NCBI GenBank assembly: GCA_947625725.1
Contig: CANQPI010000001.1
Location: 22,085 to 86,084, forward strand
DNA: 64,000 nt
Origin: an uncultured Clostridia bacterium
GTDB lineage: Bacteria; Bacillota; Clostridia; Christensenellales; CAG-314
Reading direction: 5' to 3'
Positions 3,915 to 14,490 of the stretch are shown piece after piece (position 1 is the stretch's first letter; each line of letters begins with the position of its first letter). The notes under the pieces are model-generated. The model was not told the DNA's origin, searched no databases, and worked only from the letters and a program-made list of their open reading frames with translations. The translations under genes and the position numbers were made by a program.

Positions 3915-4364
3915 CTATCTAATATTCTTCCAATATTTAATTGCGTCCGTCGCCAATTTGTCGCAACGGTTATTATATTTGTTGTCTGCATGTCCTTTGA
4001 CTTTTACGAAACGCACCGAGTGCATTTCTATTAGCTCAATGAGCTGTGTCCATAAATCCTTATTTTGAACGGGCTTTTTACTGCTATTTTTCCAGTTAGA
4101 TTGTCGCCAAGCAGCAATCCAGCCACAATTAAATGCGTTGACCACATATGCCGAATCACTATATATGGTAACAATGCAATTATGTTTCAACGCGGAGAGT
4201 GCCTTTATGACCGCTGTTAGTTCCATTCTGTTGGAAGTGGTATTTGGTTCTGCTCCGTACAATTCTTTTTTGTGAGTGCCGCATATTAGAACAGCACCCC
4301 ATCCGCCAACGCCGGGGTTCCCGGAGCAGGCTCCATCGGTGTAAATGGCGACTTCTTGATGCAT
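3915..4364 (-). CDS. rnhA: ribonuclease HI
   Basis: Start moved to M23 (AAGGAG + 7 nt). IYTDGAC (Asp), NRMELTAV (Glu), YSDSAYV (Asp), GHADNKYNNRCDKLA (His/Asp): canonical RNase HI catalytic set. Confidence 0.9.
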   Translation of the reverse strand: MHQEVAIYTDGACSGNPGVGGWGAVLICGTHKKELYGAEPNTTSNRMELTAVIKALSALKHNCIVTIYSDSAYVVNAFNCGWIAAWRQSNWKNSSKKPVQNKDLWTQLIELIEMHSVRFVKVKGHADNKYNNRCDKLATDAIKYWKNIR

Positions 4365-4871
4365 TTTAATCTCCTTTACGCAATCCTCGCTATTAGCGCT
4401 TGGTCTCATTCTGTGAGCTCTGAATGGCATTTGAGTACGGGGAGTAGTTTCGCGGTGACGAAATGCTATTTGTAATACTCAATGTAGCCAAATTACTAAT
4501 AGTTTGGGTGTGGTGTTGAAGGCATTGGCGACTTTGGGGCTTTTTGGGGGCTACGTGCGGGAATGTCTACAGGTGATCAGTAAGTGCCCATAGCAGCGTC
4601 CGGTTGGCTCCCGCTGTCACTTCGCGTTACCTTGAATTTCATTCGAGGCTCTAATGGAAATTAGAAACAGCGATTGCGAAATTTATTATTGTTGTAAAAT
4701 TAGATGCTCACAAACGCGGAAGGATGTGTATGCGGAAAGCCGACGGCACGGAAGGCTTTCCGCATATGCATCCGACGCGTTTGATTGGGTGGCGTCAAAG
4801 CGCTAATCCTCGTGTAGGAAGATATGTTTAATGTAATCAAACACCTGATGATTCAGTATTCCCATCCAATT
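4365..4871 (-). other. ORF-free spacer between RT and RNase HI; candidate RT-associated non-coding RNA region
   Basis: 507 nt with no RBS-preceded ORF on the transcribed strand in an otherwise gene-dense arm; contains several hairpins. Confidence 0.4.
4714..4780 (-). other. 67-nt extended hairpin (12-bp perfect core ATGCGGAAAGCC/GGCTTTCCGCAT plus two flanking helices)
   Basis: ACGCG-tc-GGATG-cat-ATGCGGAAAGCC-12 nt loop-GGCTTTCCGCAT-aca-CATCC-ttc-CGCGT read directly; only a weak U-tract follows. Confidence 0.7.
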
Positions 4872-6299
4872 TTATATGTTACCTTTGTTTAACAAGCGTC
4901 TAATGTCTATTTGACACTTGGACGTATAGTGAGCAATGTACGAATCTATCGTATCAGGCTCAATAGAATGACAATAGGAAATCTCTCCCGCGAGAGCTTG
5001 TATATCTTTGCTGTCCCAAGTGCGTCCGTTTTTGTAGTCTGTACCCAGTGCGAACAACGCAGTTTTGAGATGCTTTTTACGCTTGTATCCAACCGTGATG
5101 TTATTATCTTGGTTGAGCATCAATCCGAGGTTCCAGTTGCGTCCAGCAGATGAACCATAGCGAATTTTCTTGTTGCTAAACGTGAAAGGAGCACCGGCTT
5201 TTTGCAGGATTTCAAGCAATCCACACAAAACTTTAGTGTGATGTTTATCTTCTTCAATCATTGCGTTTAGAATGTTCCTGAATTTAGGCGCGCTGTCCTT
5301 GGTGATTTGGATTGTTTCCATTGTAACTACGCTGCTAGGATGATTTTCTTTGAAACGCTTGAGCGATGCGGTCGCCGCCTCTTGCTTATCTCGATAAATT
5401 ACGGGCACGTTGTCTACCGAAATTTTGAATATGGGGTAAGGAACGTATCCATTTTCATCGGGATTTTTTACATACTTCAGGCTCTCGACAATCCTTGCGT
5501 GGGACATAATTCGTTGTATTGCGTAATTTTCAAAGTCGAATTGACTCGATAATTGGATGTCGTCTGCGAACCTTGTATAAATCAAGTGCGGCTGGTGATC
5601 TCTTGCAAACTTGGCAATGGAATGGTCGATCGGAATCATGAGAAGATTTGTAAGCATCGGACTTATCGGTGTTCCTTGTGGTAGTCCGCCGTTCAAGAAA
5701 CAAATCGACAAGGCTTTTTGCAACTGTTCGCGCCCCTCTTCTTTTCCCAGAACAAGGTTAAATGGATAGATGAGAGAAAGCATCTTGATTGCAAAATCCA
5801 TCGTTATGCTTCCAAAGAAATCGTGGAAATCAGTTTTGAGAAACCAACGCGAGTTGTTGGCTTGATGTCGCCGTAGCGCATCAATCGGGGAGCGGTTTGG
5901 GATATAAGCAAAAGCAGAAGTGTGGTAGTTTGCAAAGAACGAAGTCTTCAGCAAATATGCCAACGTTCGTTGTGCCTCCATGAGGTCGTCATTTGGCGCA
6001 TCGATTCGTCTCAAGCCGCCGGTCTTTTTGGGTATGGGGAACGAGTGGTAAAAAACTGATTTGTCCTCGGCATCAATAAATTTTTTGAAGTGGCTGTTGA
6101 ACCCCATGAGTTTTCGAATGAGTTCATTGACGTCGACCTTGTTAATTAAGCGTTGCGGAGTTATTTCTCGATATATGGTTCGCGTGTCTCTTGTATCTTT
6201 AGAGGACGTTTCAAAGCAATTTGAATTAACACCTTGTAGCAAATCGTCAAATGAAACTTGCACTTCGCGAGGTTGAATATAATATGTAATATACGGCAT
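4872..6299 (-). CDS. reverse transcriptase, retron/unknown-group (UG/DRT)-like
   Basis: IPKKTGGLRRIDAP, YIPNRSPIDALRRH, FLKTDFHDFFGSI, LPQGTPISPMLTNLL, YTRFADDIQLSS in canonical order; TAGGAG RBS. Confidence 0.9.
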   Translation of the reverse strand: MPYITYYIQPREVQVSFDDLLQGVNSNCFETSSKDTRDTRTIYREITPQRLINKVDVNELIRKLMGFNSHFKKFIDAEDKSVFYHSFPIPKKTGGLRRIDAPNDDLMEAQRTLAYLLKTSFFANYHTSAFAYIPNRSPIDALRRHQANNSRWFLKTDFHDFFGSITMDFAIKMLSLIYPFNLVLGKEEGREQLQKALSICFLNGGLPQGTPISPMLTNLLMIPIDHSIAKFARDHQPHLIYTRFADDIQLSSQFDFENYAIQRIMSHARIVESLKYVKNPDENGYVPYPIFKISVDNVPVIYRDKQEAATASLKRFKENHPSSVVTMETIQITKDSAPKFRNILNAMIEEDKHHTKVLCGLLEILQKAGAPFTFSNKKIRYGSSAGRNWNLGLMLNQDNNITVGYKRKKHLKTALFALGTDYKNGRTWDSKDIQALAGEISYCHSIEPDTIDSYIAHYTSKCQIDIRRLLNKGNI

Positions 6300-6594
6300 T
6301 TTGTATCTCCTAATAAACTACAGTATGGAAAACGGTTTCCCTCAGATCAGACTGCTCCGGAGGAAGCTGGGGTGGGGGCGACGTTCAGTCGTCCGATTTG
6401 CACGTTTTTGCTGAAATCCGCTACGAAAATTGGCTAATTGAATCAGTTTTTGTTGTTGGATAACATCAACGGGTCTTGGAGAGAGCTAAGGAAGACGCCG
6501 CGATGCAGAAGTCTCTTCTTCGGGTCGGATTGTCGCGTTCACAATGCGGTACTTTTAATGTCATTAAAAGCCTTATATAAGAATGCTTTATTAG
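6300..6594 (-). other. ORF-free spacer upstream of RT; candidate ncRNA/leader
   Basis: 295 nt without ORF between E1-like stop and RT start; hairpins at 6552-6570, about 6385-6400 and 6328-6341. Confidence 0.4.
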
Positions 6595-7269
6595 TTAAAA
6601 TGTGTCGATTGCGAATGTAAATGGATTAGCAACGGCTATATGAGTCAGTGCCCCTTGACGAACAAAGTTCATAAAGTTGGTTATTCCAAGCGCGCAAATA
6701 ACGCGTACGGTTGGAGCTACTCCCATTTCAACGTTGCAAGCGGTCACGGGAGTTGTTTCTTTTGCTTCCTCGTGGGTAAAGTCCATGGTACTGATAAATC
6801 CATCTATATCCCTTGGGTTGTTCCAGTCGGCAGCGTAGTGTTGGGCATCTTCTAGTCTCGTTCGGAAGTCAAACATCGCCTTGATCGCGCGATTGAATTT
6901 ATTTTCCGTGGCAATTTGGCGTCGCAAGTCGATGTTGTCTACGCAGAGAAAGACATAACCGTTAAGCCTCACTTTTGGCTCCCAGCCCTGAGAGCAAATT
7001 TCAACGTTGTTTTCGCAGTCGGGATTGATTGCGACTAACATCTTTTTGACTGCCTCGACTTTCGGGGCTCCAATGTCCGAGTTGACAAACATTTGGTTTG
7101 CGATATTATGTGCGACGACTCTATCAAAATCGTAGAGTGTGATTTTCGTAAGACCCAGTCTAACGAGCAGTTCGGCGATGGTAGAGCCTACGGAGCCGCA
7201 ACCAATAATGTGGCAGCGCTCCCTGATTTTTGTTGGGTTGAAGTAGTCTATAGATTTGACAAGATCCAT
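6595..7269 (-). CDS. E1-like (ThiF/MoeB/HesA family) adenylyltransferase, minimal form
   Basis: Start moved to M11 (AAGGAGGTGA upstream; 8-nt gap after JAB stop). IIGCGSVGSTIAELLVRLG Rossmann loop, YDFDRV, CVDNIDLRR, Cys in TACNVE. Confidence 0.8.
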   Translation of the reverse strand: MDLVKSIDYFNPTKIRERCHIIGCGSVGSTIAELLVRLGLTKITLYDFDRVVAHNIANQMFVNSDIGAPKVEAVKKMLVAINPDCENNVEICSQGWEPKVRLNGYVFLCVDNIDLRRQIATENKFNRAIKAMFDFRTRLEDAQHYAADWNNPRDIDGFISTMDFTHEEAKETTPVTACNVEMGVAPTVRVICALGITNFMNFVRQGALTHIAVANPFTFAIDTF

Positions 7270-7277
7270 TGGTAATC

Positions 7278-8138
7278 TCACCTCCTTGGGTATCTCCACT
7301 TATTATAGGGGCTATAATCCCATTCATCGGGTTCTTCGTCGTCGCGCGCAGGAGCATCCATATAGTTCATGCTTGTTTGGGGACTATACTGTTGTGCCTT
7401 TCCTTTCGTCTTCTTTGTGGAGTTCACTCCCAGCGGATAAAGTGGGCGTGGAGTAGGAACAGTCACTTTTTTGCCTGTTTCTTTAATGAAGTTCTCAAGG
7501 GTTTCGCCGTCCTCAAACTCTACGCTTATTGTTATTTCGTTAGTATTGTACAAGGCATTGTATTGAAGATCGTATATTAAACTTGTCACTTCGCCCCTCT
7601 TGTTGACTATCATGAATATGTAGAAAACGTCGTTGTTTTCGTTGGGGGTTTCGAAAAGGTTAAGTATCTTTTTCTGGTAGGCGGTGTCGACTGCCGAGGG
7701 GGTACATCCCATATTGACGTGGCTATGTCCGTGTAGGCGCACTTTATTGAAAATGTCGTCGGGCAAACTGTCGAGCCATTGGTTATACTCGCCTTGGTCA
7801 GATGTGACTGTCGCTTCCGATACCTCGTGGGGAAATGTAAGGATGTCCTCGACAAGAAATTCCCTCTCTGCCGTTCGCGTAACGAGCCCATGCCATTGCA
7901 CTTCTGTATTATAGGTGATTACTAAAGCGTACATTTTTGCATAAGCCTTCGGAGTGAACCGGAGAGTTGCTCGCCGATCATCAAAGCCGTTGTCCCCAAG
8001 AGAAAAAGAGAAGTTGAATTGAGGAATGTCTGTAAGTTGCAGACGCTCTTTTCTCTTTGATTCAAGAAAAGCCTTGAAGTCCCCAAGGAGTTTCTCCGCA
8101 AGTTCGGGAGATGTATCACGTAGAATTTTTTTAGCCAT
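7278..8138 (-). CDS. JAB/JAMM (MPN+) metalloisopeptidase
   Basis: HGHSHVNMGCTPSAVD = HxHx7Sx2D with upstream Glu (FPHEVSE); start overlaps upstream stop (TAATG). Confidence 0.8.
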   Translation of the reverse strand: MAKKILRDTSPELAEKLLGDFKAFLESKRKERLQLTDIPQFNFSFSLGDNGFDDRRATLRFTPKAYAKMYALVITYNTEVQWHGLVTRTAEREFLVEDILTFPHEVSEATVTSDQGEYNQWLDSLPDDIFNKVRLHGHSHVNMGCTPSAVDTAYQKKILNLFETPNENNDVFYIFMIVNKRGEVTSLIYDLQYNALYNTNEITISVEFEDGETLENFIKETGKKVTVPTPRPLYPLGVNSTKKTKGKAQQYSPQTSMNYMDAPARDDEEPDEWDYSPYNKWRYPRR

Positions 8139-9526
8139 TATTCGTTCTCCTCGTCTTGTGATCTTTCGATGTAATTGACGAACTCGTCGGGAGTCATGCG
8201 GCGACCGTCATCAAGAAGAATGCACTTGCGCGAAAAGGCAAAATCTTCGATGTCTTCGATAAAGCGTCCCATAACCGTTGTATCAGAGAAATTTATATTC
8301 TTGGTCGCGGCAACCGCTTGATCGATTGCACTCTGCCAATCTCCCGACATCAGATAGTTGTCTATATATGCTTTATTGCCGCCAAGACACCCATAGTAAC
8401 AGAGGTGCGGGTGAGGCATTGCTTCCGGATCGTTAATGCAATGTCTCTCGCATCTCACTGGGGTTAATGCTGACAACCCTTTGAGTGTAAATTTGCTTTC
8501 CACAACGAACACGCCCTTGTGTCGACGGAATATATAGTCGCATACTTTTTGAGCAAATGGGAAATCCTCGAAATAAGAGGCATTTTCGAGAACGTTGTCA
8601 ATAATATTTTCGTCATAATATTCCAATGTCTCTACAATGCCGAAGTCTATGGCACCCGAACCAGATGCCGTTACTTCGTTAATTCTCAGGTGTCTTCTCG
8701 ATTGGAAGAAATTCACAATTTCGTTTGCTTTGCTTTCCGGAGCTGACTTCCAACAGTATAACTCCTGCCTTATCTTGTCCAAGGTTTGCAAACAGCCGTC
8801 GATGCGTTCCTCATACTCCCTTACGTCGCTAATCAAAGACTCCTCGTTGCCTTCAAGGTTCTTAATGCGATTTTTGATGTAAGTTTTGTTGTAGTCCGTG
8901 AGCAGTTTAATTGTCGCAAGATTCGCGAAATCTATGCCTTGACATGCGTCGTTTATGATGCTTGCGATCAAGTCAAAATCAACCTTGCTCGAGGAACGAT
9001 GAACTGCTCCGAAACTTTTGTATATTTGAAGTTCCTCCCCTTCGGGATTGGTGGGATAAAACCACGGGAAAACACGGAACAGTGTTGAGCACAAAAGGCG
9101 TACCCAGCGCAATGTAATTTTACGAACAAAGATAATGCTCTTTTTAAGTTCGTTGTTGACGTATACTTTTGTTTCTTCCGCCGTTCCCAAATATTGGTTT
9201 ACTGGGTAGGGCTTTGAATCAAGTGCTACCCACCCCTCTGCAAAAATTGTAGGAAGAGCCTCGTCTTGACGTGCCGCCGTTCCTATAAATAAATCGCAAT
9301 CGTTTGTTTGGGATATGAATGGATTCCCATCGGCGCCGCGAACAACTTGTGCATGCGGTTTTATGAGTTGTAGCGTCGATATATCACCATGGTGGTGCTT
9401 GAGAACAATATACCTCAACACCGCTTCGAGCTCGACGCTACCGTCGAACTCGAGAGGTTGTTGGCTAAAATAAGCGTTTGCGCTGGGGCCTGTAAGTATA
9501 GTTGTTAACCTATCCATTGCAGACAC
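8138..9526 (-). CDS. E2-like (UBC-fold candidate) protein with long N-terminal extension
   Basis: C-terminal MPHPHLCYYGCLGGN resembles the E2 HPN-x-Cys active-site signature; sits between the Ubl and JAB genes; TAGGAG RBS. Confidence 0.55.
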   Translation of the reverse strand: MSAMDRLTTILTGPSANAYFSQQPLEFDGSVELEAVLRYIVLKHHHGDISTLQLIKPHAQVVRGADGNPFISQTNDCDLFIGTAARQDEALPTIFAEGWVALDSKPYPVNQYLGTAEETKVYVNNELKKSIIFVRKITLRWVRLLCSTLFRVFPWFYPTNPEGEELQIYKSFGAVHRSSSKVDFDLIASIINDACQGIDFANLATIKLLTDYNKTYIKNRIKNLEGNEESLISDVREYEERIDGCLQTLDKIRQELYCWKSAPESKANEIVNFFQSRRHLRINEVTASGSGAIDFGIVETLEYYDENIIDNVLENASYFEDFPFAQKVCDYIFRRHKGVFVVESKFTLKGLSALTPVRCERHCINDPEAMPHPHLCYYGCLGGNKAYIDNYLMSGDWQSAIDQAVAATKNINFSDTTVMGRFIEDIEDFAFSRKCILLDDGRRMTPDEFVNYIERSQDEENE

Positions 9527-13884: not shown

Positions 13885-14064
13885 TTACGCTTTTGATTTA
13901 CGTTTGCGACGAGCGCGGGGCATTCGCGGTACAATCCATTTTCTCCAATTGCAAGAAAATTTGCTGACGCGGTTTCCCTTGCCGTCGCGCATTGGCTTAT
14001 TCAGGCGGTCAATGCCTGCCGTCTGCATATTGTATCTGGCGATACTTCTTAAAAGTTTTCTCAT
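13885..14064 (-). CDS. possible 59-aa highly basic protein
   Basis: ATG 5 nt after AGGAG; MRKLLRSIARYNMQTAGIDRLNK...PRMPRARRKRKSKA; below the track length cutoff. Confidence 0.35.
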   Translation of the reverse strand: MRKLLRSIARYNMQTAGIDRLNKPMRDGKGNRVSKFSCNWRKWIVPRMPRARRKRKSKA

Positions 14065-14441
14065 AATAACTCCTATTATAGTTTCACAATCCTAACGCGA
14101 CAGAATGTTAATCCAGCGAAGGAAGGAGACGCATTCGAGGTGCTTCTGGCGTGTGAGGAGTTTGTTGGTTTAATGGTTGTTTAATGGTTTTAATCAACAA
14201 TAATTCTGAAAAGTGAATGGGTTTTTATCCTAAGAGAAAGGTTCGAGTATTTAAGAGATGGTCGCGAACGCTCATTCGAACCGCTCAAGGGGCTTAGGGT
14301 TCCGATGAAAGTGACCAGATGGTATCCCTCAGGCGGCTTCCCGCCTTCACTTCTCGATGCCCTGAACGTTGTCCAAGGTTCTACAAGGTAGAAATGCGAT
14401 TGTGAATTGCTTTACAGTCCCCAAACGTGTCGTGTAATTGT

Positions 14442-14470
14442 ATTATATGACACAGATGTGGAGTTGTCAA
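14442..14470 (-). promoter_or_regulatory. sigma-70-type consensus promoter (TTGACA-17-TATAAT) with A-rich upstream tract
   Basis: Minus strand: TTGACA at 14470-14465, exact 17-nt spacer, TATAAT at 14447-14442; AAAAAAACTTTCAAAAAAA just upstream. Confidence 0.7.
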
Positions 14471-14490
14471 GCGTTTTTTTGAAAGTTTTT

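Follow-up and report, generated by a model that had tools for sequence, protein, structure and literature searches.

Retron-like RNA units around a reverse transcriptase gene of tailed phages

The spacer and its RNA units

The spacer of 507 nt considered here (4365-4871) lies between the genes for a reverse transcriptase (RT) and for RNase HI, in a window that comprises the whole stretch of DNA analysed (64,000 nt of contig CANQPI010000001.1, from an assembly assigned to an uncultured Clostridia bacterium). Terminase, portal and tape-measure genes occur in the same window, and the locus belongs to a tailed phage and not to a bacterial defence island. Up to ~20 kb, every gene of the window is on the minus strand, and the RNase HI gene starts at the ATG of 4364, preceded by an AAGGAG Shine-Dalgarno sequence at 4376-4371. 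A first-pass annotation, made from the sequence alone, had singled out the spacer for one long hairpin; what is new, beyond that single hairpin, is a family of retron-like RNA units around the phage RT, two of which (units B and C) lie in the spacer, with a third (unit A) directly upstream of the RT and a fourth (unit D) ~8 kb from it (Table 1).

The spacer had been described as devoid of open reading frames (ORFs) preceded by a ribosome-binding site, and no convincing ORF was found in it: the only ORFs of at least 40 aa within it are one of 50 aa on the plus strand and a TTG-started one of 46 aa on the minus strand, and no coding enrichment was seen over 89 homologous units, in which the longest stop-free frame is 0.65 in sense and 0.63 in antisense versus 0.56 in shuffled sequences. 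Antisense ORFs of 61-98 aa are called inside units of the homologous loci (numbered with an L; L004:5704-5934, L017:2643-2939, L018:4420-4635 and L010:5548-5733), and because open frames are not enriched across units these gene calls are probably artefacts. The same annotation had the arm tightly packed elsewhere, which is wrong, since further ORF-free gaps are present at 6300-6594 and 14065-14490; each of them contains a paralogue of the spacer element. The best Rfam match between 3500 and 7500 reached only E = 6.9 (searched to E = 10), no match at the gathering score was obtained anywhere in the window, and no tRNA was found.

Unit B begins on the RT gene itself, its inverted repeat a1 taking in the UAA stop codon, after which the unpaired G4862 is a candidate priming nucleotide. 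Its order is a1, GG, two hairpins designated hp1 and hp2, two small hairpins known from the minimum free energy (MFE) fold of the unit alone, the long hairpin, G, and the complementary repeat a2. The long hairpin is real and occurs exactly where it had been placed (4780-4714, minus), with a folding energy as RNA of -36.5 kcal/mol (z = -5.9) that was equalled by none of 200 shuffles. Only a weak T-rich tail had been noted behind it, and indeed the sequence directly 3' of the hairpin is UUUGUGAG, with no U-tract. The hairpin is absent from the terminator scan, whereas the real terminators of this window possess T-runs (e.g. 17934-17903 and 14922-14901); the signature of an intrinsic terminator, a G+C-rich stem and then a U-run, was not found in it.

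The architecture of unit B is conserved among relatives. When RNAalifold was applied to a plain MAFFT alignment of 11 B-type units, it recovered a1/a2, hp1 and hp2, and compensatory changes were seen at 15 of the 23 pairs. A long hairpin of 25-36 bp follows the RT stop in the window and in L004, L012, L019, L021, L054 and L070 (z = -4.9 to -7.7), the body in L010 is likewise strongly stable (z = -5.3; the hairpin counter split its stem), and the long-hairpin fold is also seen in L013, L015 and L046. The sequences of these hairpins are unrelated between loci and cannot be aligned, and alignment of the gaps showed no conservation of the hairpin sequence with respect to a phage whose RT is 48% identical; it is the structure alone that is conserved, within a close subfamily. 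The check suggested for the hairpin, covariation across homologous loci, thus gave a positive outcome, in that a long hairpin of differing sequence stands at the same place together with covarying a1/a2, hp1 and hp2. A B-type unit is present after the DUF6273 gene in L004, and none is evident in the corresponding 112-nt gap of the window.

Unit C has a weakly structured body of ~240 nt, and its a2 ends 2 nt 5' of the RNase HI Shine-Dalgarno sequence. The spacer had been regarded as one element; it holds two, of which unit B does carry the long hairpin. Of the two smaller hairpins that had been listed in this part of the spacer, the one at ~4636-4654 is present, although as the conserved hp1/hp2 pair of the second unit, and for the one at 4447-4467 conservation was not found. 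Syntenic counterparts of unit C, with an a1 of ACAAUC followed by G and an a2 of GAUUGU preceded by G, occur in L004, L015, L019, L021, L046 and L070.

The place of unit A, upstream of the RT, is the canonical one for retrons; the unit ends 10 nt before the RT ATG, and its a2 overlaps the Shine-Dalgarno sequence of the RT. The hp1 of unit A is weak (CUUAUAUAAG, in the 6572-6590 region of the minus strand), relatives showing a clear hp1 there, and an alternative pairing in this unit, AAAGC...GCUUU, overlaps the start of hp2 (6551-6571). Unit D is preceded by a perfect sigma-70 promoter (TTGACA-17-TATAAT, 14470-14442) ~36 nt upstream of its a1.

Table 1. Coordinates of the RNA units and of the genes around them (R1, covariance model of the hp2 motif; aa, amino acids)
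Feature	Positions	Strand	Description
RNase HI	3915-4364	minus	149 aa; Pfam RNase_H 1.4e-42; NCBIfam ribonuclease HI 200 bits (cutoff 160)
Unit C	4379-4678	minus	300 nt; R1 31 bits, E = 2.9e-6
Unit C parts	a1 4678-4672; G4671; hp1 4665-4650; hp2 4649-4629; G4386; a2 4385-4379	minus	a1 CGCAAUC; a2 GAUUGCG
Unit B	4695-4874	minus	180 nt; retron-like ncRNA; MFE -68.6 kcal/mol, z = -7.0; a1/a2 stem closes the fold
Unit B a1	4863-4874	minus	UAAAAUUGGAUG; 12-nt inverted repeat with 4695-4706, 92% complementary (pair I23)
Unit B hp1	4845-4856	minus	CUGA-auca-UCAG; from the MFE fold; four outer pairs covary across B-type units
Unit B hp2	4824-4844	minus	GUGUUUGAU-uac-AUUAAACAU; 9 bp, 3-nt loop; R1 27.5 bits, E = 2.8e-5
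Unit B long hairpin	4712-4783	minus	imperfect; the hairpin first noted at 4714-4780 plus three outer pairs (full fold)
Unit B a2	4695-4706	minus	CAUCUAAUUUUA; pairs with a1; opposing G4707 just 5'
RT	4872-6299	minus	475 aa; Pfam RVT_1 2e-19; F-A-D-D catalytic box (relatives Y-A-D-D)
Unit A	6310-6594	minus	between ThiF stop and RT start; R1 43 bits, E = 1e-9
Unit A parts	a1 6594-6587; G6586; hp2 6571-6551; G6318; a2 6317-6310	minus	a1 CUAAUAAA; a2 UUUAUUAG
ThiF/E1-like adenylyltransferase	6595-7299	minus	224 aa; upstream trio; matches Cap2 E1 models
JAB/MPN metalloprotease	7278-8138	minus	286 aa; upstream trio; invariant JAMM motif E...HxHx7Sx2D
462-aa protein	8138-9526	minus	unknown fold; upstream trio; invariant PHPH...C motif
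59-aa ORF	13885-14064	minus	very basic (MRKLLRSIARYNMQ...RRKRKSKA); 3' of unit D; no family match
Unit D	14083-14406	minus	fourth, more diverged unit; R1 17.5 bits, E = 0.02; a1 UUCACAAUC followed by G; a2 GAUUGUGAA preceded by G

A common plan maintained by compensatory changes

All units are characterized by the same plan, namely a1, an unpaired G, hp1, a 9-bp hp2, a variable body, G and a2. It is maintained on the RT strand, with compensatory changes, in over 100 homologous phage loci. A small hairpin with a GUA after it recurs in both gaps of the window phage and of the phage with the 48%-identical RT. Among 48 instances of hp2, double changes are found in eight of the nine pairs and G-U pairs are frequent (45 of 48 at the closing pair), and the covariation score of 0.665 compares with 0.25 for shuffles and at most 0.16 for slid partners. 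As a G-U pair becomes a C-A mismatch on the opposite strand, hp2 is a structure of the sense transcript and not a double-stranded palindrome. A search with the hp2 motif as a covariance model (R1) gives three strong matches in the 64-kb window, at 6577-6527, 4850-4800 and 4655-4605, all within ~1.8 kb around the RT, and one weak match at 14385-14335; in 129 homologous loci it gives 96 matches, of which 92 are on the RT strand. The matches are thus local and follow the RT strand, from which it is concluded that the motif is not a general promoter, operator or terminator of the phage. The specific proposal of an N4-like hairpin promoter, or of a palindrome bound by a dimer, was rejected on the same grounds, i.e. 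G-U pairs that form on one strand only, the bias towards the RT strand and the presence of just four copies in 64 kb.

The a2 repeat, complementary to a1, lies 115-260 nt downstream. An RNAduplex-style test of this pairing was noisy (large loops allowed; -21.0 versus -19.1) and was replaced by a contiguous-helix test, in which the cognate 5' and 3' ends of 92 units score 21.9 versus 18.2 for non-cognate ends (p = 2e-13), the cognate helix exceeding all 30 controls in 19 of the 92 units where 3 would be expected. Of 89 units, 64 have a G directly after a1, 65 have one directly before a2 and 62 have both, against a background G content of 20%. The closure is also apparent when hp2 is ignored: upstream of 89 RT genes, with RTs down to ~35% identity, an a1-G...G-a2 arrangement is detected (p = 5e-10) that spans from ~280-370 to ~17-45 nt before the ATG, both Gs being present in 62 of 85 loci.

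The number of units differs from phage to phage: the window has 3-4, and L010 and L012 have no fewer than 6 each. In the latter two, 4-5 units stand in tandem at intervals of ~290 nt, uninterrupted by ORFs (L010:5536-6700 and L012:5081-6229), and every array unit possesses a matching a1/a2 pair of its own (in L010, UUUUUACAAUC/GAUUGUAAAAA, GACAAAUC/GAUUUGUC and AAAACAGA/UCUGUUUU). Both arrays sit between genes of the DUF3850 and DUF3560 families. Outside the B type, bodies are 200-260 nt long with a mean z of -1.4 and show no alignment beyond head and tail; MAFFT followed by RNAalifold on 31 units yielded hp2 as the only consensus structure for the A/C-type. Bodies within one genome are 55-65% identical versus a shuffled baseline of 46% (a baseline that pooled bodies of unequal length), and the copies within a genome are old paralogues. 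A blastn comparison of units A-D with the window returned only self matches, hairpin arms and a similarity between units C and D. As no template/variable repeat pair appeared in it, a diversity-generating retroelement was rejected.

Lineage of the reverse transcriptase and its neighbours

Sequence comparisons place the RT in the retron lineage. Its best 25 matches among the PADLOC models are all retron RTs, headed by RT_II-A at 4.6e-42, and the best NCBIfam match is the retron St85 RT (161 bits, under the 235-bit cutoff), whereas UG/Abi-type models match weakly (Drt2, 6e-9 over 58 residues; Drt3a, 1.5e-6) and only along a short stretch around the catalytic box. In a sequence search of the PDB, the nine best matches are retron RTs (Ec83 at 6.5e-20, Kva2, Ec78/St85 and Ec67) or chains without a family name, and the thumb aligns too; the first non-retron RT, that of a group II intron, ranks lower (9e-8), and no Abi or DRT structure was returned. 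The catalytic aspartates are intact. Between the palm (YADD) and the thumb there is an insertion of ~100 residues (~257-370), which is shared by a minority of relatives (430-500 aa) and missing from most (~380 aa).

Homologues of the RT number in the thousands in metagenomes, and the comparisons drew on 48 loci from IMG/VR viral contigs (mostly 40-140 kb) and on 80 of at least 494 metagenome loci, several of which are labelled human gut. Megablast found no close DNA relatives among deposited phages, and the single deposited phage record with a relative in the protein search is an unannotated fecal phage. A recurrent module is seen at every locus for which genes were listed, and consists of proteins of ~460 aa, of ~260-330 aa and of 224 aa (ThiF-like), a gap of ~300 nt and the RT. 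In relatives the gap after the RT measures 220-900 nt and is often followed by RNase HI and DUF6273 genes. Phages with RTs that are only 45-55% identical retain units at positions A (before the RT), B (at the RT stop) and C (before RNase HI). RNase HI adjoins the RT in many homologous loci, including distant ones. In L080, L085, L102 and L125 an RNase HI ORF (…VIYTDGAC…GNPGPGG) begins ~30-70 nt past the RT stop with no unit between. Since RNase HI follows the RT in distant loci without an intervening unit, the link between the two enzymes holds without the downstream units.

The trio upstream of unit A includes a 286-aa protein whose structural model matches Rpn11/CSN5-type deubiquitinases (E = 4e-9). 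An E1-like enzyme and a JAB protease beside the RT are enzyme types of ubiquitin-like conjugation systems; no link between a retron-type RT and ThiF or JAB genes in phages was found in the literature searched, and the association of an RT with enzymes of this kind seems to be undescribed. For the 462-aa protein an E2 identity had been guessed from its PHPH...C motif, and this was set aside when a confident model (pLDDT 88.7) found no match in the PDB.

Further observations concern the remainder of the arm. A P-loop kinase of AAA_33/KTI12-like type (142-1200, minus) lies downstream of the RT module; in relatives (L004:9690-12214) the kinase is near a metallophosphatase, which recalls the polynucleotide kinase-phosphatase sets of RNA repair. 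Gene orientation and GC/AT skew change sign near ~20000 of the window, the minus-strand arm carrying the RT module and all four units and the plus-strand arm carrying the terminase, portal, tape-measure and tail genes.

Interpretation and relation to known systems

A retron ncRNA (non-coding RNA), the msr-msd, is characterized by inverted-repeat ends, one to three short hairpins in the msr, a long stem in the msd, two opposing Gs and contiguity with the RT gene (PMC7736814). All of these RNA features are found in unit B and the positional one in unit A, and for this reason a retron-type ncRNA was chosen as the best explanation: the spacer would be two retron-type ncRNA genes co-oriented with the phage RT, the long hairpin of the first acting as an msd-like template, a reading that we consider probable. 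The msd stem-loop of retrons is 10-50 bp long, and that of unit B and its orthologues falls within this range. Throughout the family the covarying hp1 and hp2 stand in place of the retron msr, and the body in place of the msd. The suggestion of the first-pass annotation that the hairpin belongs to an RT-linked, msd-like RNA rather than to a plain terminator is thereby strengthened by the hairpin in relatives, by the covarying a1/a2 and small hairpins, and by the missing U-tract, with use as a template staying at the level of a prediction. Our confidence in the RNA architecture of the units is high, and in their presumed reverse transcription it is moderate.

On the retron-type reading, the RT would recognise the hp1-hp2 module that is common to all units, prime at the 2'-OH group of the G that follows a1 and, beginning beside a2, copy the body, while the neighbouring RNase HI would strip the copied RNA. 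The product would be a small single-stranded DNA, in the case of unit B a hairpin DNA of ~100 nt, and a single RT could in this way serve several templates. In retrons, the DNA made is linked to the RNA through a 2'-5' bond. In the phage, such DNAs may act as decoys in counter-defence, in takeover functions or in feedback control of downstream genes.

Several features weigh against the retron-type reading. The hp2 instances and the a1/a2 helices were found by a pairing search, so that their raw percentage of paired positions is inflated, a bias addressed by the shuffles, slid partners and cognate versus non-cognate controls. The RT reaches the cutoff of none of the curated retron RT models. 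It also departs from VTG and NAXXH, the signatures of retron RTs, of which G and H are the most conserved residues (PMC7736814): the window RT and the family consensus have NLG in place of VTG ('RNWNLGL' versus 'RHVTGV' in Ec83, the G being kept), and NAXXH is replaced by ALRRH ('IDALRRHQ' versus 'LDNAKIHQ' in Ec83, the H being kept and the N and A lost; family consensus, 'IDAVKRHQ'). Only the B type possesses an msd-like long stem, the bodies of the commoner A/C-type being unlike known msd regions. The occurrence of several units per RT, some of them downstream of it, differs from the known retron arrangement. Finally, units A, C and D each lie directly before a gene with a2 at or beside the ribosome-binding site, a placement that would permit a purely cis-regulatory role.

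That last point bears on the main alternative, in which the units serve phage mRNAs in cis as leaders or processing elements, for instance with a2 occluding the ribosome-binding region or with nuclease sites, and would work independently of reverse transcription, the link to the RT being positional or a matter of self- or neighbour-regulation. Units A, C and D are immediately upstream of the RT, RNase HI and the 59-aa ORF, a2 overlaps or abuts the Shine-Dalgarno sequence and is 17-45 nt from the RT ATG in most loci, A/C-type bodies have no long msd-like stem, and unit D, 8 kb from the RT, has a promoter of its own. However, unit B is followed by another unit and not by a gene, arrays of 4-5 units occur without intervening ORFs in L010 and L012, the a1-G...G-a2 geometry has no obvious use in a leader and matches that of retron priming, and the ~50 kb of the window that remain lack the motif despite their many genes. 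Some units could have a leader role; unit B and the ORF-free arrays speak against it for the units in general, and we judge this alternative unlikely.

A second alternative, which we hold to be quite improbable, equates the system with the published phage UG27, a UG/Abi class 2 RT with neighbour clusters 346 and 337 and an intergenic ncRNA, of which the units would be instances. UG27 is likewise an RT of gut metagenomes and of predicted human-gut tailed phages, with conserved neighbours of unknown function and a predicted structured ncRNA in the gap beside it (PMC9226505), and both habitat and general layout resemble those described here. Its members were, however, selected for a UG/Abi profile score at least ten-fold better than the retron one (PMC9226505), which by the authors' own rule puts UG27 in the UG/Abi lineage, and the present RT shows the opposite, with over 30 orders of magnitude between the retron models (4.6e-42) and Drt2 (6e-9) or Drt3a (1.5e-6), as judged by public models and not by the profiles of the UG27 authors; Abi and DRT structures are likewise missing from its PDB sequence matches. 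The UG27 ncRNA consists of three long stem-loops and is not a unit closed by a1/a2 (PMC9226505). The neighbour genes of UG27, clusters 346 and 337, are described as lacking recognisable domains (Mestre et al. 2022, PMC9226505), whereas here a clear ThiF and a JAB are present, neither of which is reported for UG27 (a comparison by description only).

The units might instead be non-autonomous retroelements or repeats, comparable to short interspersed nuclear elements (SINEs) or miniature inverted-repeat transposable elements (MITEs), spread through the early-gene arm by the RT or in another way, for their own propagation only. Dispersed and tandem copies per genome, a conserved head on a variable body and a copy number that differs between related phages are what such elements would show. 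Yet copies within a genome are old, with bodies just 55-65% identical, the syntenic positions A, B and C are kept between phages with 45-55%-identical RTs, and compensatory changes preserve the structure, which indicates selection on the RNA and not recent spread; this account is very improbable. Scarcely credible, lastly, is a terminator or 3' stabiliser of the RT message followed by an ordinary 5' untranslated region of RNase HI, for which a very stable hairpin ~90 nt past the stop codon and a weak promoter-like match after it (9/12, 4713-4685) could be cited, since UUUGUGAG replaces the U-run that real terminators of this genome have, the stem is enclosed by a covarying a1/a2 that starts on the RT stop codon with hp1 and hp2 before it, and the same 5' module heads units far from any gene end. 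The first-pass annotation had offered a terminator plus RNase H leader as the dull possibility, and in position it was half right, because 2 nt separate the end of unit C from the Shine-Dalgarno sequence of RNase HI and the second half of the spacer does adjoin RNase HI as a leader would; the terminator half is left unsupported by the lack of a U-tract.

Taken further, the retron-type reading leads to a tentative picture, less than an even bet, in which widespread uncultured phages of the human gut and other metagenomes carry a self-contained multi-template retron. An RT with its own RNase HI would serve 3-7 msr-msd-like RNAs and generate several small single-stranded DNAs during infection, for offensive or counter-defence use and possibly under the control of the E1-like and JAB enzymes. 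If this is true, retron machinery is also used on the side of the virus, a retron-type RT being kept by hundreds of lytic-looking phages, and a single RT can be paired with a family of templates; the basis for use by phages is the occurrence at 494 or more metagenome loci and on 48 viral contigs, the arrayed units, and the adjoining RNase HI and ubiquitin-like enzymes. The question that this raises is how a phage benefits from making msDNA (multicopy single-stranded DNA). A compact recognition module such as hp1-hp2 (~35 nt), placed on very different bodies, is an aim of the engineering of retrons for genome editing. For annotation, the long "empty" gaps of these phage genomes would be RNA genes.

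Among known systems, type II CBASS (cyclic oligonucleotide-based antiphage signalling systems) with Cap2/Cap3, and E1-E2-JAB modules, share with the present locus an E1-like adenylyltransferase, which here matches the E1 of Cap2, and a JAB/MPN protease, the JAMM motif of which is intact here. They differ in the partners of these enzymes, which are a cyclase and an effector there and an RT and ncRNAs here, and in that no E2 or ubiquitin-like protein was identified at this locus, the 462-aa protein being without a structural match.

DRT2 (UG2) and DRT9 (UG28) have an adjacent structured ncRNA that serves as template of the RT, a role that may be shared by the units described here. The ncRNAs of these systems are located upstream, and the products copied from them are repetitive or homopolymeric; we know of no description of a retron-style a1/a2 closure with opposing Gs in them. 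Their RTs are of the UG/Abi type, which the present RT matches weakly and partially. The comparison with DRT2 and DRT9 drawn in the first-pass annotation is thus a poor fit, because the RT groups by sequence with the retron lineage and not with UG/Abi.

Retrons provide the closest likeness. They have in common with the present system an RT of the retron lineage, an ncRNA closed by a1/a2 inverted repeats with two opposing Gs at the inner end of the stem, short hairpins in its 5' part and, in the 3' part of unit B, a long stem-loop (25-36 bp), one unit (A) directly upstream of the RT, and conserved accessory genes beside it. The accessory genes here are an E1-like ThiF, a JAB protease and the 462-aa protein, a set that to our knowledge matches none of the 13 described retron types. 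Types I-XIII are those of Mestre et al. 2020 (PMC7736814). Further differences are that RNase HI is co-encoded here rather than borrowed from the host, and that most units have long, weakly structured bodies with no long msd stem. Retrons are bacterial anti-phage systems with one ncRNA per RT, whereas the system described here is encoded not in a bacterial defence locus but by large tailed phages, with 3-7 ncRNA units per RT that include downstream units and tandem arrays.

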